Below are positions 6,976-29,042 of a stretch of DNA of 64,000 nt, piece by piece (the first letter of the stretch is position 1; each line of letters opens with the position of its first letter). Below the pieces are notes generated by a model. It was given only the letters and a program-made list of their open reading frames with translations. It did not search any database and was not told where the DNA came from. The DNA lies in the IMG/VR virus record IMGVR_UViG_3300032287_001394. One strand, 5' to 3'. Position numbers and translations under genes: made by a program. Source of the DNA: a virus.

Positions 6976-7208
6976 GTAAAAAAAGCAAAAATAAAATGAA
7001 AGCTTGGCGTCGTATGGCTAAAAAATACTATGATGCAGAAAGGGGTGTATGGGTTCGTGTTGGTAGACAGTTAAAAATGTTTACAGATGGATATAAATCA
7101 CCAAGCAATGCTATAGGTTTATTAGGTAATTTATTAAATAATATGGAAGATTCTAGTAAAATTTTGAAACGTTATGAGAAAAAGGTGAAGACAGATGAAA
7201 CTGAGTAA
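6972..7208 (+). CDS. Hypothetical basic protein
   Basis: Overlapping ORF in operon. Confidence 0.6.
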   Translation: MSKKSKNKMKAWRRMAKKYYDAERGVWVRVGRQLKMFTDGYKSPSNAIGLLGNLLNNMEDSSKILKRYEKKVKTDETE

Positions 7209-7854
7209 AGAAACCCTTAGCTTAATTAAAAATTATGCTTCGATTAATAATAACCTGTTATTTAAACCAGGAAATATCTTATCAACCATTGCAGTAAGTA
7301 ACACCATCATGTCATCATCGACGGTGGCCGAGGCATTCCCTAATGAGTTCGGTATCTATGACGTGAACGAGTTCCTTGCGGTCTTATCATTATTCGAAGA
7401 TCCTGATCTTGAGTTCTCAGAAAAAACTGTAGCAATTAAACAAGGTAATAGCAGCATCAAGTACTTTGCTGCAGCGCCAAACTCTATCGTTGTACCTAAG
7501 AAAGAGATCATATTCCCTGAGGCAGAGATCAACTTCAAGTTAGAAGCAAACGTATTAGCCATGATCCTCAAGACTGCACCAATCCTTAAGTCTACAGATG
7601 TAGCACTGTTGGGTGATGGATCAACCATCAATGTAGTAGTTGGTGATAAGAAGAACGCAACGTCTAATGCTTACACATATACCTTAGGCACTACGACTTC
7701 TGTGTTTAAAGTTAACTTAAAGATCGACAACCTTAAGATGGTACCAGGTGACTATGATGTATCCATCTCGTCTAAAAAGATCTCACGCTTTAAAGGTGCT
7801 GGTGATCTAGTATATTATGTAGCGATTGAAGCAGATTCAACATTTGAAGCTTAA
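7195..7854 (+). CDS. 45: Sliding clamp gp45
   Basis: MKLSKETL..KNYASIN, FGIYDVNEFL, YYVAIE; synteny with gp44/gp62. Confidence 0.95.
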   Translation: MKLSKETLSLIKNYASINNNLLFKPGNILSTIAVSNTIMSSSTVAEAFPNEFGIYDVNEFLAVLSLFEDPDLEFSEKTVAIKQGNSSIKYFAAAPNSIVVPKKEIIFPEAEINFKLEANVLAMILKTAPILKSTDVALLGDGSTINVVVGDKKNATSNAYTYTLGTTTSVFKVNLKIDNLKMVPGDYDVSISSKKISRFKGAGDLVYYVAIEADSTFEA

Positions 7855-12781: not shown

Positions 12782-13186
12782 ATGAAATCAGTTCCAGACT
12801 TCATTGAAGGTCATAAGACTTCCAATGATATATTGATCTTAGGCCAATGTCCCTCCTCTAAAACTAAACCGTTTAAGAATGGGACATTTGCACGTCTAAG
12901 TAAATGGTTAGAAGTCGTAGATGTACATGCATTTGCATTTCACAACGTGATACCAGATAAGATCAACAGTTATGATATAAAAGATGTGCAATATAAAAAG
13001 CTGTATACTGTAACATATGGTAGAAAGAAGATCATAGCGTTAGGTGGGTTTGTAGAACGGGTATGTAAGAAGTACAACATACCACACTATAAGATAGATC
13101 ACCCATCTCCACGCAATAGAAATTTAAATGATCCTAAATATGAAGAACAGATGCTAATTAAATTAAGAGATTATTTGAATGATTGA
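12782..13186 (+). CDS. Uracil-DNA glycosylase-superfamily-like protein
   Basis: ILGQCPS, IIALG and HPSPRN motifs. Confidence 0.65.
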   Translation: MKSVPDFIEGHKTSNDILILGQCPSSKTKPFKNGTFARLSKWLEVVDVHAFAFHNVIPDKINSYDIKDVQYKKLYTVTYGRKKIIALGGFVERVCKKYNIPHYKIDHPSPRNRNLNDPKYEEQMLIKLRDYLND

Positions 13187-14345
13187 AACAACGCAATACT
13201 ATGATGAGTATATAAGATACTTTAATCTTGCAAAGGATCAGCAAGAGAAGTGTAATGTATCTCTTAATCCTCCTTATGGTATGACCCCGCATGCAGAATC
13301 AGACATGAACGATGATCTACTACATCATGTTGAACTATACGATGTGGTCGAACGTAAGTATGCAGGATTTTCTCAGATAGTTAATGATTGCTTTTACGGT
13401 TGGACAGAACAACATCCTTATTGGAAAAAGATGGAAGCTGGTAAGATCACCCATCAACGTGATACGGTAGCTAAGAATTGGACAGGCAAGCATGCAGACT
13501 TTAAACTGCCCGAATGGTTGTACATCTTCATCCTACATCGTGTATGTGGTTCTGCGATCAACTATTCTACAAAACCTAGTGGGTACCATAATACCCTACT
13601 ATTCTCGTTACATAACTGTAAGACCATTGAAGACATGATCGAGATGGTGAATAACTATCCATACTCGTTCTATACTTCTGTAGGTTATCAGTTCCCAGCA
13701 TTTCCAAAACCACCAACAGAATCCAAGTATAAACGAGGTGGAGACTATTACCTATCAGAGTATGCACCTCGATTAGCAAGAGAACTTGCAGAATATTTAG
13801 AATCTGGTGGTGAACGATCATTAAGAGAGATTGGCTCATTCATGTTAGATTGGAATGTTAAGAATAACCTAAGACAGTACCACTTCCAATATGCAGCAGT
13901 AGTTGCAGATATTGCAGATTGGTATCCGAAGTATGTAGATAAATCATCACCATTTTACTATGGTACAAATGCAGTAGAGTGTATCTCTTATCTTGCTAAA
14001 CCATCAACTAAGATGAAGCAAGAAGAATTCTTAGATAAGGTTATGGAGAGAATCTATATGGAGACAGGTGCATATCCTTACAATGCTGAAGATGTATGTT
14101 GTGACTTCATACGATGGGTAGAAAATTATGTTCGACCCGGTGCAGATTATAATCATCTTGACTTTGATTCAGTATGGTCATCATGTCGTATTAAAGATCA
14201 TCCATTTGGTAGACAAGAAGCTATGCTCAAACTTGGTCTCATAGATACATTTAATAACATGACAGCTCATCCATCAGATGACACTATCATTAAAGCAAAT
14301 AACATGACAGTAGAACAGTATAAGGAATTATGCAAAACACTCTAG
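13179..14345 (+). CDS. Putative amino acid:DNA transferase (aGPT-Pplase-like), paralogue 1
   Basis: FQYAAVVADI, YGTNA, AEDVCCDFIRW resemble the F..y....D / GpGa / E..LCE..KY blocks of the family; adjacent PLP enzyme. Confidence 0.55.
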   Translation: MIETTQYYDEYIRYFNLAKDQQEKCNVSLNPPYGMTPHAESDMNDDLLHHVELYDVVERKYAGFSQIVNDCFYGWTEQHPYWKKMEAGKITHQRDTVAKNWTGKHADFKLPEWLYIFILHRVCGSAINYSTKPSGYHNTLLFSLHNCKTIEDMIEMVNNYPYSFYTSVGYQFPAFPKPPTESKYKRGGDYYLSEYAPRLARELAEYLESGGERSLREIGSFMLDWNVKNNLRQYHFQYAAVVADIADWYPKYVDKSSPFYYGTNAVECISYLAKPSTKMKQEEFLDKVMERIYMETGAYPYNAEDVCCDFIRWVENYVRPGADYNHLDFDSVWSSCRIKDHPFGRQEAMLKLGLIDTFNNMTAHPSDDTIIKANNMTVEQYKELCKTL

Positions 14346-15316
14346 CTCGATTCATTGAAAATGTAGAATACAGAAACATTACCTATAAAGGTACAAGTCC
14401 TGTAGTATTAAAAGATGGTAAGCCTACAGAATCTTGGATGAAGGATTGGCCACTCGAAAAAAGATTAGATAAGTTCTTTGAGTTCTGTCAAGAGTTTGAT
14501 CTTAGACGAGATCAATTACTTGCTGAAGACTATCAGATATTCTCACACCGACTCCATTGGCATGAGCATCCGTTCTGTGATATCATGAAGAAGGTCACAG
14601 ATCCTAAGTTAAGATTGTGGTACACACTTACCTTTTCATTTAGTAACGAACACTGGGGAACCCTAACACGGTTGATGTATCAAGGTCCAGAAAACTTGCG
14701 CGAACACTTTAAAGAGAATAGACATGCACGTAATGATCTATTCCAAATCTATTACCCTAAGAACACGTTAGTTAAGGATTGGTTGATAGATGGTCCTAAG
14801 AAAGCTGCTGAGGAAATGTGGGAGTTTCTAGAAAAACACAGACATAGATTAGAACGACCATACACTATGATGGAGTATGCTAAACTATTAGAGAAGTATT
14901 TCAAAGAGAAACAAAACTTTAGGAGTCCATTATACCCATGCAAGAATACTGCACGATACATGGCTATGGCATATCCAGACATCGTAGATCCTGAGTCAGT
15001 ACTGTTTGGTGGTACAGGGCACTTTGATGGTATGCATCAAATATTTGGTGTTAACTTAAACGGTAAAGTACAGTATGAGATCGATCCTAACGGTCAGTTC
15101 ATACCGCGTAATAAGAACGGTGAATTATGGTTGGCACAGATGCATCAGTTAAGAGATGATGTACGTAATCCAATGTTATCGCAAAAGATGTTGAACATTG
15201 AAGATAAGACATGCTTCTTCTATAAACACATAGCTATTAGTCATGGTGTTAAATCACCTACTAAGCGTATCCCTTATTCGTGGATATTCCCTGAAACTTT
15301 TAGCTTAAGGAAATAA
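14330..15316 (+). CDS. Putative amino acid:DNA transferase-like protein, paralogue 2
   Basis: YPDIVDPES..GGTG and IEDKTCFFYKH align with YPKYVDKSS..YGTN and AEDVCCDFIRW of paralogue 1. Confidence 0.5.
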   Translation: MQNTLARFIENVEYRNITYKGTSPVVLKDGKPTESWMKDWPLEKRLDKFFEFCQEFDLRRDQLLAEDYQIFSHRLHWHEHPFCDIMKKVTDPKLRLWYTLTFSFSNEHWGTLTRLMYQGPENLREHFKENRHARNDLFQIYYPKNTLVKDWLIDGPKKAAEEMWEFLEKHRHRLERPYTMMEYAKLLEKYFKEKQNFRSPLYPCKNTARYMAMAYPDIVDPESVLFGGTGHFDGMHQIFGVNLNGKVQYEIDPNGQFIPRNKNGELWLAQMHQLRDDVRNPMLSQKMLNIEDKTCFFYKHIAISHGVKSPTKRIPYSWIFPETFSLRK

Positions 15317-16215
15317 TGAGAACATTCGTTGAAGGTGTAAACAAAGAAGTAGGCATGATGACATGGCCAGAAGCCAAAGATTATTACTTATCTTTGTGTG
15401 AAGGATGGACACCGTATAACCCAGATCCAGTTGTCATCGAGCATGAAGGTGTACGAGTGGTTCGAGATGATCTTATCGTTGGCACAAAGACAAGAGCCGG
15501 CGATTTGCTTGCAGCCAAGATCCCAAACGATACGCTAGTTTATGTACAACCAAGAGTAGGACTTGCTGGTGTATCTCTATGTGATGTAGCAAAGATACAT
15601 GGTAAAAAGATCGTATTGTTTATGCCATCATCTAAACAGATCTCACATCATCAAGCATGTTGTATAGAGCGTGGAGCTGAAGTACACTTTGAACGGATAG
15701 CAGCGATGCCTAACTTAAACTTATATGCTAAGAAGTATGCAGAAGAGAATGGTTATGCATTCATCCCTCTTGGATTAAAGCATGAGTTAGCAACAGCTGG
15801 TATTGTGTATGCTGCATCACGCATCCCCGAACCAGATGAGGTGTATGTAGCTATAAGTACTGGTGTACTATCGCGTGCATTACAGATAGCATGGCCAAAT
15901 GCAAAGTTTCATTCGGTTGCAGTAGCACGTAACTTACAAGAAGGTGAATTAGGTAGAGCAGAGTTCATATCAGAACCGCTTGAGTTTGCAACACCAGAAA
16001 AGCTTGAGAACTTGCCACCGTTCCCAACAGTACGTTCATACGATGCTAAAGTTTGGAAATATATACCTAAGAACACAGGAAGAAACATCCTCATGTGGAA
16101 TGTAGGCACAGACCCAGTATTAAACGATTATAGTATTATTGATAAAACAGATTCATATCGCAAATGGAAAAAAGATGAAAGTATTACTCACACAGCCACT
16201 CTCGCCGGTTTCTAA
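15316..16215 (+). CDS. PLP-dependent enzyme (fold type II, TrpB-like)
   Basis: RDDLIVGTK with candidate Schiff-base Lys, VAISTGVL loop. Confidence 0.75.
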   Translation: MRTFVEGVNKEVGMMTWPEAKDYYLSLCEGWTPYNPDPVVIEHEGVRVVRDDLIVGTKTRAGDLLAAKIPNDTLVYVQPRVGLAGVSLCDVAKIHGKKIVLFMPSSKQISHHQACCIERGAEVHFERIAAMPNLNLYAKKYAEENGYAFIPLGLKHELATAGIVYAASRIPEPDEVYVAISTGVLSRALQIAWPNAKFHSVAVARNLQEGELGRAEFISEPLEFATPEKLENLPPFPTVRSYDAKVWKYIPKNTGRNILMWNVGTDPVLNDYSIIDKTDSYRKWKKDESITHTATLAGF

Positions 16216-17218
16216 TAAGATCCACTCACACAAAGCCTCACAAGGCATTATCTATGCAGACCAATTAAGGAACGCTGGATATGATGTGACGGTGCACATG
16301 ACCGGTAAACAACTATACGATTATAATGAATATGATATAGTTGCTCTCTATCATGGTAACGACTGGGGTGGATCACTCAACCTATTCGGTGGATTAGAGA
16401 ACTATGCAAATATCGAATACATCATAGCACTATCAAACTTTAATGGTGAAGTATGGTCACTCGCTATAGACATGCCAGATTATCATAGTATGTTATATCC
16501 TCGTGTAGACAAAGCACGTAAGGAAGGTAAGAAGTTAAATCGCGATTGGTTACAAATTAATTGGGGTAACCTTGAACTAATACAAAAACAAGCTAAGACG
16601 CTTGATCCCAACCTCGCTAAGAAGTATCCTAAGATTGCTATAGGCGATTCACATGCCATTTGTATGTATCGCCCAGGATGGATGAACGTATCTACACCAT
16701 TTAAGACATTACATGGCGCATTAAAGATGGGGTTCGAGTCATTCATACCTGTCGGAGAATACAACGCGATCGAGACATACTTCGGTAACATCGATGTACG
16801 TCATCATCTCATGAGATTTCCTGAAGAACATACACTAGACCTCGCTAAGAGGTATGTAGAAGAGTGTGTAAGGATTAGCACGGTATATGGAGCACACGTT
16901 ACGATATGGGAACTATTACCTATTGAGAATGAATCACGTGTATTACCAAAGACGGGTTATTATAAAGGACTTCCATTCTATGGTACATGGGATGAACGTG
17001 AAGGTCGTCGTAAACTATTCAACCAATACATCAAAGACCATCATGAGGTATATGAATGGACTTCAGGTCTATTGAACTCTAAGGGCGAACTAGACTTTGA
17101 ATACATGGAGAAACCAAAGTCTGTCCACTTGTCCCGGGCGTCATACCCCTATTGGACTGGAGCTGATTGGAATGCTCCCAAGCCAATCCCCGGCGGACTA
17201 GAATCATTCTTTTCATAA
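16175..17218 (+). CDS. Fusion of T4 beta-glucosyltransferase-like N-terminal domain and SGNH/GDSL-like domain
   Basis: DYNEYD...LNLFGG resembles BGT DVNDYD...INFFGG (recalled); IGDSH, GNID, SVHL SGNH-like blocks. Confidence 0.5.
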   Translation: MKVLLTQPLSPVSNKIHSHKASQGIIYADQLRNAGYDVTVHMTGKQLYDYNEYDIVALYHGNDWGGSLNLFGGLENYANIEYIIALSNFNGEVWSLAIDMPDYHSMLYPRVDKARKEGKKLNRDWLQINWGNLELIQKQAKTLDPNLAKKYPKIAIGDSHAICMYRPGWMNVSTPFKTLHGALKMGFESFIPVGEYNAIETYFGNIDVRHHLMRFPEEHTLDLAKRYVEECVRISTVYGAHVTIWELLPIENESRVLPKTGYYKGLPFYGTWDEREGRRKLFNQYIKDHHEVYEWTSGLLNSKGELDFEYMEKPKSVHLSRASYPYWTGADWNAPKPIPGGLESFFS

Positions 17219-17246: not shown

Positions 17247-17275
17247 TGTACATTAAATAGCTTATTTGGTATAAT
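17247..17275 (+). promoter_or_regulatory. Early-type promoter with inverted IHF-like box at 17216-17230
   Basis: TGTACA-N17-TATAAT. Confidence 0.85.
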
Positions 17276-23842: not shown

Positions 23843-26323
23843 ATGAGTAGATTCTATACGAACGTAGTCAAGTACGGCAATTCTCTATTGCTCCGTTATG
23901 TCAATAACGGTCAAGCCTTCAAGAGTAAGGTGCCATATCGTCCTACATTATTTGTCCCAGCTAAAGATGATTCTGATTGGCATACATTAGAAGGCACACC
24001 AGTATCTCCTACTAAATTTGAATCAATCAAAGAAGGTATGGAATATGTCGATCGTTATAAAGACGTAGAAGGCTTTACATTCTATGGTCAAACACAATTC
24101 CAATATCAATACATCACTGAGACTTATCCTAAGACTATTCAGTGGGATAAAGATCTCATCAAGATGTTTTCAATTGACATCGAGACTGCAACTGAGAATG
24201 GATTCCCAAATATAAGTGAAGCAAACGAAGAAGTATTGCTCATCACTATCAAAGATAACCATCATAAACAAATCGTAACGTTCGGCTCTCGTCCATATAT
24301 GACTGATCGTAAAGATGTCAAGTACATGTTTTGCAAAGACGAAGCAGACTTACTCAAGACGTTCGTTGTATTTTGGTCTAACAACTATCCTGATGTGGTC
24401 ACTGGTTGGAACATCAACGGCTTTGATATCCCATATCTGGTCAATCGTATTCGCCTTGTACTAGGCGACGAGTATGTCAAACGTATGTCACCATGGGGTA
24501 TCGTAAACGACAAGAAAGCCTATGTAGGTGGTGGTACATCTATCCAATCATATACCTTCGTCGGCATATCTGTATTAGATTACATGGATCTATATAAGAA
24601 GTTTACATATCAGAATCAAGAATCATATGCATTAAACTATATCGCAAGCGTCGAACTTGGTAAGAAGAAGCTTGAGAATCCTGAAGATAACTTCAAAGAC
24701 TTCTACACAAATCATTGGAAGACATTCGTAGATTATAACATCCATGATACCGAACTCGTTGATATGTTAGAAGATAAGATGAAGCTCATTGAACTTGTCT
24801 ACACTCTAGCTTATAGCTCTAAGATTAACTATGAAGATGTATTCTCACCTGTTCGCATGTGGGATGCCATCATCTTCAATTACTTGTATGAACGTAAGAT
24901 CGCCATCCCTCTAAAAGAAGAGAATGGTAAGTCTGAAGTATTCGAAGGTGCTTATGTTAAAGATCCTATAGTTGGTCCTCACAAATGGGTTGCATCGTTC
25001 GACTTAAACTCACTGTACCCGCACCTTATCATGCAGTATAACATGTCACCTGAAACATTGACTGATACTCGCATCGATACAAACGTAGATAAACTATTAA
25101 CTAAAACACCTATGAATGTGCCAGTCGGTCTATCAACATCTGGTAATGGTTGGTGTTACACAAAGGATAAGAAAGGTTTCCTTCCAGCATTGATGGAAGA
25201 GATGTACAATAATCGTTCTAAGTTTAAGAAGCAGATGTTAAAGGCTGAACAAGAATACGAGCACAACAAAGATCCTCAGCTAGTCAAAGACATCTCACGC
25301 CTCAAGAACCTACAGATGGCTATGAAGATCGCACTAAACTCAGCTTACGGCGCGATCGGTAATAAGTACTTTAGATATTATGATCTACGCATCGCAGAAG
25401 GTATCACATTATCTGGTCAACTAAGTATTCGATGGATGGCTAACAAGCTTAATGACTTCATGAACAAGACATTGAAGTCTGATGGTAAAGACTATGTCAT
25501 CGCTATCGATACCGACTCAATCTACCTATCACTTGAAGATCTAGTTGAGAAGGTATGTGCAGGTAAAAACACTGAAGAGAAGATCGTATTCATGGACAAG
25601 ACATGTGAGAAGGTCATTCAACCATTCATCGATGGTGGATACCAAGAACTCTCAGAATACATGAATGCTTATGGTCAAAAGATGCAGATGAAACGCGAAG
25701 TACTGGCAGACAAAGCAATATGGGTTGCCAAGAAACGATACGTGCTAAACGTACATAATTCCGAAGGAGTACAATATGCGAAACCTAAGATTAAAGTTAT
25801 GGGCCTTGAAATGGTCAAATCGTCGACACCTGCAGTCGTCCGCACGAAACTCAAGGATGCATTGGAGGTCATCTTGCACCAGGATCAAGCATCGCTTCAG
25901 GCATTTGTCCGCGAGTTCAAGACGAAATTCGCGTCGCTCTCTGTTGCTGATGTCGCATTTCCTAGATCGGTTTCTTCCTTAAAAGAATACAGCGGTACAC
26001 CGATCTATAAGAAAGGTACACCGATTCAAGTAAGAGGTGCATTACTCTTTAATCATTACCTTAAGATGAAAGGTCTCACACGTAAGTATGAACCTATCAC
26101 TAATGGCAATAAGATTAAGTTCGTATATCTCAAGACACCAAACCCGATCAACGAGAATGTTATCGCATTCAACAATGTGTTACCTAAAGAATTTGGATTG
26201 GATGAATACATAAACTATGATCTACAGTTCGAGAAGGTATTCCTTGATGCATTACAAATCGTTATTGAACCGTTAGGATGGCATGCTGAAGAGAAAGCTT
26301 CTCTTGAGTCTTTCTTTGGTTAG
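23843..26323 (+). CDS. 43: Family B DNA polymerase gp43
   Basis: DIET exonuclease, DLNSLYP, KIALNSAYG, DTDS, KKRY. Confidence 0.98.
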   Translation: MSRFYTNVVKYGNSLLLRYVNNGQAFKSKVPYRPTLFVPAKDDSDWHTLEGTPVSPTKFESIKEGMEYVDRYKDVEGFTFYGQTQFQYQYITETYPKTIQWDKDLIKMFSIDIETATENGFPNISEANEEVLLITIKDNHHKQIVTFGSRPYMTDRKDVKYMFCKDEADLLKTFVVFWSNNYPDVVTGWNINGFDIPYLVNRIRLVLGDEYVKRMSPWGIVNDKKAYVGGGTSIQSYTFVGISVLDYMDLYKKFTYQNQESYALNYIASVELGKKKLENPEDNFKDFYTNHWKTFVDYNIHDTELVDMLEDKMKLIELVYTLAYSSKINYEDVFSPVRMWDAIIFNYLYERKIAIPLKEENGKSEVFEGAYVKDPIVGPHKWVASFDLNSLYPHLIMQYNMSPETLTDTRIDTNVDKLLTKTPMNVPVGLSTSGNGWCYTKDKKGFLPALMEEMYNNRSKFKKQMLKAEQEYEHNKDPQLVKDISRLKNLQMAMKIALNSAYGAIGNKYFRYYDLRIAEGITLSGQLSIRWMANKLNDFMNKTLKSDGKDYVIAIDTDSIYLSLEDLVEKVCAGKNTEEKIVFMDKTCEKVIQPFIDGGYQELSEYMNAYGQKMQMKREVLADKAIWVAKKRYVLNVHNSEGVQYAKPKIKVMGLEMVKSSTPAVVRTKLKDALEVILHQDQASLQAFVREFKTKFASLSVADVAFPRSVSSLKEYSGTPIYKKGTPIQVRGALLFNHYLKMKGLTRKYEPITNGNKIKFVYLKTPNPINENVIAFNNVLPKEFGLDEYINYDLQFEKVFLDALQIVIEPLGWHAEEKASLESFFG

Positions 26324-27560: not shown

Positions 27561-27911
27561 ATGACAAAGCAATATTCAAGACCTTCGGCAAACATCTTAT
27601 TAGAAGCTGCCGATATCCAAGAAAAGAAAGGCAATGACTATAACAATGCTGCAAGTCGGGTACAACAAGCCGACTACTATGAGCATGGTGTATGGACAAT
27701 CCTTGACATCATCAAAGCAAAATACCTTAGAATGGTATCTGTATTAGAAGCACAAGAAGCTGGTGGTCAACCAAACTATGAATCAGTTGAAGACTCTGCA
27801 CTTGACATGATTAACTATGCATCATTCGTGGTAGCATATTGTCGTGGTCAAATTCCTGGTCAAGATCCAGATAAAGACATCTTTAATAAGCCAAAGAAGG
27901 ATGTAGAATGA
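27561..27911 (+). CDS. Nucleotide-modification-associated domain 1 (DUF1599-like) protein
   Basis: KKGNDY, K..R, ESVEDS.LD.INYA. Confidence 0.75.
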   Translation: MTKQYSRPSANILLEAADIQEKKGNDYNNAASRVQQADYYEHGVWTILDIIKAKYLRMVSVLEAQEAGGQPNYESVEDSALDMINYASFVVAYCRGQIPGQDPDKDIFNKPKKDVE

Positions 27912-28597
27912 GTACAGTCTATGGTGTAAGTAATATTAGAAACATCTTTAAAGAAAAGTTAAAGATGGAAGAGTTCGTTTATGATAAGACTAGTGTTAAA
28001 ACAATTGAGATTATAAATGCGGCATTCTTTGCTAATCAACCAACAATCTTTGGTACAGTCAATGAAGACTATGTTAAAAGAGAATTAGATTGGTATAAGT
28101 CTATGTCATTAAATGTTAATGATATTCCAGGTGGTCCACCAGAGATTTGGAAGATGGTATCATCAAAAGATGGTATGATTAACTCAAACTATGGTTGGTG
28201 TATATATTCTAAAGAGAATGGTTCACAGTTTATAAAAGTTGTAGATGAATTAGTTCGTAATCCAGGTTCTCGTAGAGCTACTATGATCTATACGCGACCA
28301 ACCATGCATGATGATTATAATATTGATGGAATGTCTGACTTCATGTGCACTAACACAGTCCAATATTTAATTAGAGACTGTAAACTGCATGCTATAGTTA
28401 ACATGAGATCAAACGATGCAGTGTTTGGTTATAAGAATGATTATGCATGGCAAAAGCATGTATTACTTGAAGTATGGGAATACTTAAGAAACGGCTATAA
28501 ACACTTATTAGATCTTAAGATAGGCGATATCTATTGGAACGTAGCATCTCTTCATGTATACGAAAGGCATTTTAAGTTCATCGATGGCAGCGATTAA
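27908..28597 (+). CDS. 42: dCMP hydroxymethylase (T4 gp42-like, thymidylate synthase fold)
   Basis: INSNYGW, DFMCTNTVQYLIRD, MRSNDAVFGYKNDYAWQ; Asp at the base-specificity position as in T4 gp42. Confidence 0.88.
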   Translation: MSTVYGVSNIRNIFKEKLKMEEFVYDKTSVKTIEIINAAFFANQPTIFGTVNEDYVKRELDWYKSMSLNVNDIPGGPPEIWKMVSSKDGMINSNYGWCIYSKENGSQFIKVVDELVRNPGSRRATMIYTRPTMHDDYNIDGMSDFMCTNTVQYLIRDCKLHAIVNMRSNDAVFGYKNDYAWQKHVLLEVWEYLRNGYKHLLDLKIGDIYWNVASLHVYERHFKFIDGSD

Positions 28598-29042
28598 TAA
28601 ATGGTACAAGCGATACCTTAAACTCGCAAAAGAAGTTGCAACGTGGTCAAAAGATCCTAACACTCAAGTTGGTGCAATCGTGGTTGGATCTAAGGGTCAA
28701 ATCTTATCTCAGGGATATAATGGATTCCCACGTGGTATATCTGATTTAAGTAAAAGATTAAATGATAGAGATACAAAGCTATCGCTAATTGTACACGCTG
28801 AGATGAATGCAATATATAATGCTACATATTCAGGTGTATCATTAGACGGTTCAACCATATTCATTCATGGTTTACCAGCATGCTCTGAGTGTGCAAAAGG
28901 AATCATTCAAGTGGGTATAAAGAAAGTAGTAGTATCAAAAGAATGTATTGAAGCTAGACCACATTGGAACGAGTCATGGAAAAAATCCATCGCGATGTTC
29001 GCTGAGGCTGGCATAACAGTTTATGTAATCAATGAGGAGTAA
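28584..29042 (+). CDS. cd: dCMP deaminase
   Basis: SKDPNTQVGA, GYNG, HAE, PACSEC. Confidence 0.93.
   Translation: MAAINKWYKRYLKLAKEVATWSKDPNTQVGAIVVGSKGQILSQGYNGFPRGISDLSKRLNDRDTKLSLIVHAEMNAIYNATYSGVSLDGSTIFIHGLPACSECAKGIIQVGIKKVVVSKECIEARPHWNESWKKSIAMFAEAGITVYVINEE

Follow-up and report, generated by a model that had tools for sequence, protein, structure and literature searches.

Within a 64,000-nucleotide stretch of viral DNA (IMG/VR record IMGVR_UViG_3300032287_001394; hereafter, the window), a plus-strand gene at positions 16175..17218 was found to encode a 347-amino-acid protein (P0001), in which an N-terminal domain related to the acceptor domain of T4 beta-glucosyltransferase (BGT) is joined to a domain of the SGNH fold. 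The best explanation of this hybrid protein is that it carries out the activating step in a kinase-less hypermodification pathway acting on 5-hydroxymethylcytosine (5-hmC). That the hybrid is a DNA enzyme directed at 5-hmC and belonging to a hypermodification pathway is, in our view, highly probable. The chemistry is less certain, and it is with a little less than even confidence that we propose a clamp-tethered SGNH acyl-enzyme which would esterify the 5-hydroxymethyl group of hmC in new DNA, supplying the leaving group as the kinase does in thymidine pathways.

The window is a segment of a T4-like phage with a GC content of about 37% and all genes on the plus strand; its replication genes are gp46, gp45, gp44, RegA, DNA ligase, gp43, UvsX, and gp41. 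A megablast search of the region against phage records gave no match. The ATG codon at 16175 was taken as the start of the hybrid because its homologues begin at the same Met-Lys, and an upstream TTG at 16139 is unsupported on the same ground. The reading frame is the last of its operon, overlaps the 3' end of the preceding gene, encoding a pyridoxal phosphate (PLP) enzyme, by 41 nt, and contains every motif quoted in the initial annotation (MKVLL, DYNEYDIV, SLNLFGGLEN, VWSLAID, IGDSH, FGNID, and KSVHL). An AlphaFold2 model with two domains (pLDDT 96.3, pTM 0.92) was obtained from an alignment of 89 diverse homologues, 27–51% identical, which also underlies the conservation counts given below. 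The family is large, with at least 593 IMG/VR loci encoding relatives and 404 clusters at 50% identity. Judging by the recorded taxa, it is confined to viruses, the Atlas clusters being 98–100% viral.

The N-terminal domain (residues 1–147; 16175..16615, plus strand) was assigned by Pfam, hhalign, and structure searches. The initial annotation had likened this half to the T4 BGT N-domain, and the likeness was borne out: hhalign aligned residues 1–97 of the family N-domain profile with BGT residues 1–98 in register (E = 2.1e-6), with a score of 42.5. Among the controls, 40 shuffled versions of the BGT N-domain scored 11.3 ± 2.0 (maximum 17.1), the C-domain of BGT scored 10.0, and none of nine other T4 proteins exceeded 16.9. 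When the domain was modelled alone (pLDDT 96.0) and compared with 48,161 PDB chains or representatives, BGT (1c3j) was its best structural match, with a Z score of 7.8 and a root-mean-square deviation of 2.7 Å over 110 residues; the match spans residues 1–147 of the model and 1–164 of BGT, and the runners-up were TIR domains (Z 6.1). The relation was tested at the sequence level because a Z score of 7.8 alone would not decide it. In Foldseek, BGT had the highest TM-scores (0.48–0.50), and flavodoxin-like proteins had slightly better E-values.

The Pfam family of BGT, PF09198, matched the hybrid with E = 0.0074 and 16.5 bits, below the family cut-off of 27, with residues 21–113 in register with profile positions 20–115. 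Weak in-register matches were found in six of the 89 homologues (P0001 and five others), and in each of five related near-complete genomes the sole match to PF09198 was the N-domain of the hybrid homologue. The conserved residues of the domain are S18-H19, D54, G61, N69, and G72-G73, and the hybrid shares the YD motif with BGT and has LNLFGG where BGT has INFFGG. The equivalent of the BGT Asp100 is less constant: in P0001 it would be Asp99, one residue beyond the end of the hhalign alignment, and an acidic residue at 97 or 99 is present in only 65 of the 89 hybrids. As judged from profiles and models, the N-domain is homologous to the Rossmann-like acceptor domain of BGT, the similarity lying far beyond chance.

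BGT itself is a GT-B-fold enzyme (PF09198/GT63; 1c3j, 1qkj, and 1j39), but the hybrid lacks its UDP-glucose-binding C-domain and carries an SGNH-fold domain instead (residues 148–328; 16616..17158, plus strand), assigned by structure searches and motif conservation. Such a replacement had been suggested at the outset, and the searches uphold it. In Foldseek, the best PDB matches of the C-half were platelet-activating factor acetylhydrolase (PAF-AH)-like proteins and sialate O-acetylesterases, with E-values of 1.7e-6 and weaker. An exhaustive structural search placed 2hsj and 9kqz first (both Z 13.4), with the Oskar OSK domain at Z 11.2, the peptidoglycan O-acetyltransferase PatB at Z 10.3, and OatA at Z 9.7, these values measuring similarity of fold. 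A diverged GT-B donor domain was also considered and rejected, since the fold matches were uniformly SGNH and the BGT C-domain scored no better than the shuffled controls. The Pfam GDSL/SGNH models did not match P0001 and gave weak matches in only 11 of the 89 homologues, no P-loop kinase family of Pfam matched P0001, and searches of P0001 and its profiles against the sequences of PDB chains returned nothing meaningful.

Although it stands outside the SGNH/GDSL sequence families, the hybrid shares the fold of their members (PAF-AH 1bwq, 2hsj, sialate O-acetylesterase 6xpg, PatB 7tjb, and OatA 6vjp; Z 9.7–13.4) and, of the characteristic blocks, I and III. In block I, Ser159 of the GDSH motif (codon 16649–16651, plus strand) lies at the start of helix 1; G157 is present in 88 of the 89 homologues, and D158, S159, and H160 in all. 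Block III (GxND), represented by the plus-strand GNID motif with Asn205 and Asp207, has G204 in 86, N205 in 77, and D207 in 89 sequences. In block V, His318 (codon 17126–17128, plus strand) is invariant near the C-terminus, but the usual Asp three residues before it is missing, this position (315) being occupied by Lys, Arg, or Gln, and by Lys in P0001. Glu312 is found in all 89 sequences and, as a guess, may replace this Asp. Block II is the most variable: Gly176 is present in 52 of the 89 sequences and is Phe in P0001 and 22 others, while the adjacent Thr178 is invariant. Residues 173–176 occur in two covarying versions, R-x-D-G in about 60 of the 89 sequences and S-T-P-F in the P0001 clade, with Thr178 constant in both. 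The invariant residues outside the SGNH consensus are R209-H210-H211, R214, E251, R255, R275, and E312; the cluster formed by R209-H210-H211-R214, R255, and R275 is an addition relative to the SGNH/GDSL enzymes and appears suited to phosphate or DNA binding. The hybrid also differs from these enzymes in being cytoplasmic, joined to a DNA-enzyme domain, and equipped with a clamp-type tail. On the evidence of the model and of residue conservation, the C-half is an SGNH fold with a conserved predicted Ser-His site.

The tail is a further feature of the hybrid. P0001 ends in GGLESFFS, of which LESFFS (17198..17215, plus strand) is a putative peptide for binding the gp45 sliding clamp, the presumed docking site, whose gene lies at 7195..7854 on the plus strand (PHROG 223, Pfam PF09116). 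The same motif closes the gp43 DNA polymerase of the window (23843..26323, plus strand), which ends in KASLESFFG; the T4 gp43 ends in KASLDFLFG, its clamp-binding peptide. Among 222 open frames of at least 60 amino acids in the window, only the hybrid and the polymerase end in this way, and in contigs carrying both genes the two tails are alike genome by genome (e.g., SLDEFFM and TLDEFFG). A clamp-type tail is present in 64 of 78 homologues and is absent from a subclade with a single aGPT-Pplase-like gene. A predicted complex of gp45 with the last 52 residues of the hybrid scored 0.11, which is below the mark and speaks neither for nor against binding. Read from its sequence, the tail argues that the DNA on which the hybrid acts lies at the replication fork or behind it.

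The base on which it would work is indicated by the nucleotide metabolism genes. The window encodes a gp42-type dCMP hydroxymethylase, a source of 5-hmC (27908..28597, plus strand), which is 59% identical to T4 gp42 and keeps the catalytic Cys148 and the cytosine-specifying Asp179; at the latter position, the dUMP hydroxymethylase of phage M6 and a thymidylate synthase have Asn. A dCMP deaminase gene follows (28554..29042, plus strand) and is directly upstream of the cassette containing the hybrid in relatives. In the related genomes G001 and G004, which are complete or near-complete and contain loci L021 and L039, the gp42-like gene is the only ThyA-family gene, no thymidylate synthase was recognisable by PF00303, and dCMP deaminase is present. 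The gene order in a 119-kb relative is gp42-like, dCMP deaminase, cassette, hybrid, UvsX, and gp41, while that in T4 is 42, beta-gt, (segA), uvsX, 40, and 41; therefore, the hybrid of the relatives occupies the slot of beta-gt, between gp42 and uvsX. The hybrid and BGT would also share their substrate, 5-hmC in phage DNA. In the window, the same block has been relocated as a unit. The proposal of the initial annotation that 5-hmC is the target thus receives support of an indirect kind, from the gp42 orthologue, the beta-gt slot in relatives, and the polymerase-like clamp tail.

Gene neighbourhoods were counted in the best 80 of the IMG/VR loci, using as denominators the loci with enough flanking sequence. 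The PLP gene is directly upstream of the hybrid in 68/68 loci, a 388-amino-acid partner is present in 39/39, its 328-amino-acid paralogue in 27/39, and a gene of the uracil-DNA glycosylase (UDG) fold in 19/39, and gp42 lies within 10 kb in 26/31. Neither an M6-type kinase nor a full-length BGT gene was found in any of the 80 loci. Eighteen long proteins contain the hybrid; 13 of them are fusions with a homologue of the 388-amino-acid protein, and seven carry PF18723, sometimes together with an FkbM methyltransferase. In the thymidine-hypermodifying phage M6, Pfam labels the glycine:DNA transferase gp51 as PF18724, the DNA kinase gp54 as PF18748, and gp55, adjoining the kinase, as PF18723 ('helical domain of 5-hmdU DNA kinase'). 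The fusion of the hybrid to PF18723 therefore has the same layout as the pairing of the P-loop kinase with PF18723.

Searches of whole genomes agree with the neighbourhood counts. In five near-complete relatives (140–167 kb), PF18723 and alpha-glucosyltransferase gave no match at E ≤ 1, and PF18748 and PF18724 gave none at this threshold in four near-complete relatives and in Aeromonas phage 44RR2.8t. The M6 kinase gp54 found nothing in a tblastn search of the window or a protein search of five related genomes, which is a weak test. The only PF18723-like signal in 44RR2.8t lies inside its fused hybrid homologue, ORF233c (795 amino acids, as in phage 31). The N-terminal 340 residues of this protein are the same two-domain hybrid (32% identical, BFVD TM 0.82), and the phage has gp42; it differs from P0001 in its fused C-terminal PF18723-like helical domain. 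Directly upstream of the fused gene is a sodium:solute symporter-like gene, ORF234c (L001 4408–5931), the product of which could import a donor or precursor.

More distant members of the family (L099 1078–5538; L100 6308–10891) belong to another type of cassette, in which the hybrid, free or fused to PF18723, is accompanied by an FkbM-type methyltransferase and a myo-inositol-1-phosphate-synthase-like enzyme. The base decoration made there may thus be a different one, perhaps derived from a cyclitol or a sugar. Between cassette types, the hybrid and its helical partner are constant and the accessory enzymes are swapped; a core activating step therefore fits the hybrid better than product-specific tailoring.

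In the window, the cassette consists of five overlapping genes, the last being the hybrid. The first (12782..13186, plus strand), overlapping the start of the 388-amino-acid gene, encodes a small UDG-superfamily protein of 134 amino acids with the motifs GQCPS and HPSPRN; PF03167 was detected in 15/15 homologues (best E = 6.8e-6), the alignment to SMUG1 is weak, and HPSPRN is as in SMUG1. SMUG1 excises 5-hydroxymethyluracil (5-hmU), and the UDG-fold protein might clear deaminated 5-hmC from the DNA or assist in base flipping. The fourth gene (15316..16215, plus strand), overlapping the start of the hybrid, encodes a fold-II PLP enzyme of 299 amino acids (PHROG 7093, E = 6e-38) that weakly matches the M6 gp52 decarboxylase.

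The second and third genes encode candidate paralogues of the aGPT-Pplase or amino acid:DNA transferase (AADT) type, namely the 388-amino-acid protein (13179..14345, plus strand), a natural fusion partner of the hybrid, and the 328-amino-acid protein (14330..15316, plus strand). In Atlas searches, they adjoin clusters named amino acid:DNA transferase or containing PF18723 or PF18724, with scores of 0.94–0.98 (0.94–0.97 for the former, 0.96–0.98 for the latter), and hhalign shows the two families to be weakly paralogous (E = 8.6e-4). Near the C-terminus, the motif AEDVCCDF occurs in 51/51 homologues of the 388-amino-acid protein, and an IEDKTCFF-type motif in 26/37 homologues of the other. The pattern E-x-x-x-C-x-[F/W] is common to M6 gp51 (ETVLCKW), M6 gp55 (EHTLCEF), the PF18723-bearing fusion partners, and both window paralogues. 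Neither protein matched Pfam (even at E = 10, and with no PF18724), PHROG, or NCBIfam, no tblastn match was found in phage records, and hhalign of their profiles against M6 gp51, gp55, and the PF18723-bearing fusion partners gave no signal. The weak paralogy, the Glu...Cys motifs, and the wider occurrence of the pattern nevertheless lend the assignment some support: aGPT-Pplases typically occur as a paralogous pair (PMC8989533). AADTs require a leaving group, and M6 gp51 and ViI gp247 both depend on a conserved Cys and a Glu close to it; the Cys has been proposed to add to C6, expelling the leaving group on the 5-CH2 (PMC8989533).

Two observations concern the PLP enzyme. Its sequence is 33–36% identical to part of gp1 of Erythrobacter phage vB_EliS_R6L and of a protein of Microcystis phage Mae-JY30, large proteins that carry the annotation of DNA modification methylases; therefore, this PLP family is fused to DNA methyltransferase domains in unrelated phages. 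In the clade with two paralogues, the PLP enzymes (window 16186–16212, loci L014–L039) end in ATLAGF or a NLEQNTFA-type sequence, and these tails might be degenerate clamp-binding motifs.

The analysis shows the domain homologies, the conserved catalytic motifs, the constant gene linkage with its fusions, and, with the models and query used, no kinase or glucosyltransferase in relatives; from these elements, a pathway can be proposed by inference. Judging from the genes present, gp42 and the replisome would place 5-hmC in DNA. The hybrid would ride the gp45 clamp by means of LESFFS, and its BGT-like N-domain would offer the flipped 5-hmC to the cleft, where Ser159, with His318 and an oxyanion hole at Asn205, would pass an acyl group to the 5-CH2OH to form an ester. 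By analogy with M6 gp51 acting on 5-phosphomethyl-dU, the two aGPT-Pplase-like proteins, using Glu...Cys, would then form an adduct at C6 and replace the carboxylate with an amino acid or amine acting as nucleophile, and the PLP enzyme might finally trim the appended amino acid. The initial annotation had left two options for an acylated 5-hmC, a final mark or a leaving group in place of the phosphate used in thymidine pathways. The second fits the context better, because the hybrid is always paired or fused with aGPT-Pplase-type proteins and its relatives are without a detected DNA kinase.

Several points weigh against the proposal of an activating acyltransferase. The assignment of the 388- and 328-amino-acid proteins is provisional because profile searches gave no match, and it rests on language-model similarity and a short motif. 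No gene for an acyl donor stands out in the cassette, and a very divergent kinase could still be present in the relatives. The active site departs from the SGNH consensus in having Lys315 at the place of the block V Asp and, in the P0001 clade, Phe for the block II Gly. The known SGNH O-acyltransferases, PatB and OatA, are extracytoplasmic and receive acetyl from a membrane partner. Finally, 44RR2.8t has the hybrid fused to the helical domain in a genome with no match to PF18724, and the 13 kb surrounding the gene contain no annotated PLP enzyme, the genome itself not having been searched for one; in this phage, the ester could be the end product.

The last of these points belongs to a broader alternative, in which an O-acyl or O-aminoacyl ester of 5-hmC is the mature modification, at least in 44RR2.8t-like phages, and the neighbouring proteins are DNA-binding or base-flipping helpers. 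The Aeromonas protein, consisting of the hybrid and a helical domain in a genome without a match to PF18724 or PF18748 and with no PLP gene annotated nearby, agrees with it, as does the slot of the gene, which in T4 is held by beta-gt, itself the writer of a terminal mark. It is harder to reconcile with the PLP enzyme that stands beside the hybrid in the window and in all 68 relatives, or with partners that keep the Glu...Cys motif catalytic in AADTs; moreover, esters of 5-hydroxymethylpyrimidines are labile. We consider a terminal O-acyl mark improbable as a general account and most plausible for the Aeromonas fused form. Another possibility is that the SGNH domain acts late, as an esterase or amidase on a group already on the base or in removing misplaced groups, with the leaving group coming from another enzyme. 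Most SGNH proteins are hydrolases, the best fold matches of the hybrid are esterases (PAF-AH and sialate O-acetylesterase), and its gene is the last of the operon. Yet a late hydrolase would be expected neither to remain constant while the accessory enzymes differ between cassette types nor to be fused to a helical or aGPT-Pplase-type partner where the kinase stands elsewhere; what the hybrid has kept of BGT is the N-domain, which deals with 5-hmC before its modification, and no other activating enzyme was found in the relatives searched. On balance, such a role seems unlikely, if worth keeping in mind.

Two further explanations deny the hybrid any catalysis on DNA. In one, the SGNH domain would be a nucleic-acid-binding module like that of Oskar, and the protein a scaffold binding DNA or 5-hmC and recruiting enzymes to the clamp; the OSK domain is indeed among the fold matches, a clamp-type tail is present, and the SGNH domain has many invariant Arg and His residues. 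The OSK domain, however, has lost the Ser, His, Asp, and Asn residues of SGNH enzymes, whereas Ser159, His318, and Asp207 are present in every one of the diverse hybrid sequences and Asn205 in most, so that a non-catalytic role is very improbable. In the other, the protein would be an ordinary phage esterase acting on the host envelope, a lipid, or a polysaccharide, like the many tail-associated phage esterases among the SGNH proteins listed in BFVD. We give hardly any weight to this reading, since the gene lies in an early/replication block and not among tail genes. The protein also has a BGT-N domain and a polymerase-like clamp tail, its family includes fusions with domains that modify DNA bases, and its gene is strictly linked to gp42, all of which stands against an envelope esterase.

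If the hybrid activates 5-hmC, it would hold the position of the 5-hydroxymethyldeoxyuridine DNA kinase (PF18748 with helical PF18723; phages M6, ViI, PhiW-14, and SP10). Like the kinase, it adjoins or is fused with a PF18723-type helical protein, comes upstream in the pathway of aGPT-Pplase-type transferases and a PLP enzyme, and would supply the leaving group; unlike it, the hybrid has no P-loop and no relation in sequence or fold, its target would be 5-hmC, and its leaving group a carboxylate instead of a phosphate. The cassette as a whole resembles the thymidine hypermodification clusters (Lee et al. 2021, PMC8989533) in having a hydroxymethylase in the genome, adjacent to the cassette in relatives, a paralogous aGPT-Pplase-like pair with the Glu...Cys motif, and a fold-II PLP enzyme related to M6 gp52; it differs in that the hydroxymethylase is cytosine-specific, no kinase or canonical PF18724 was detected, and the hybrid and the UDG-fold protein are added. 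Because the published metagenome survey of such thymidine clusters took the kinase as its seed (PMC8989533), it could not recover kinase-less ones.

A search of one literature library found no paper describing this cassette and none combining SGNH with hydroxymethylcytosine; for cytosine hypermodification, only glycosylation, TET-dependent routes, and carboxymethylcytosine were found. To our knowledge, every DNA hypermodification of the amino-acid type characterised so far begins with 5-hmU and depends on a DNA kinase. The cassette suggests that a parallel pathway exists in which 5-hmC is activated by other chemistry, and we regard it as a hypermodification cluster whose activating enzyme and target base are both new. 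The hybrid shows a glycosyltransferase acceptor domain re-used with an unrelated catalytic module, and acyl chemistry, if confirmed, would be a new enzyme activity. More tentatively still, the hybrid might be a clamp-riding DNA 5-hmC O-acyltransferase standing in place of the nucleobase kinase, and as such the first enzyme known to esterify a DNA base. If this is true, abundant uncultured T4-like phages and cultured Aeromonas phages would contain an undescribed family of cytosines decorated with amino acids or amines and, in other cassettes, possibly cyclitol-derived and methylated. The predicted new modified cytosine would have consequences for sequencing chemistry and for defence by restriction, CRISPR, and glycosylases, and the cultured Aeromonas phages 44RR2.8t, 31, and 25 make the prediction directly testable.

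Two minor observations concern the arrangement and borders of the hybrid. In a metagenomic protein of 733 amino acids (P0391), the hybrid is C-terminal (44% identical) behind an N-terminal region of 388 amino acids, for which neither a Pfam match nor similarity to the window cassette proteins was found. In the window, the stop codon of the hybrid is followed at 17247–17275 (plus strand) by a good match to a sigma-70-like promoter (TGTACA, a spacer of 17 nt, and TATAAT, with an upstream TG), which agrees with a transcription unit that ends with the hybrid.

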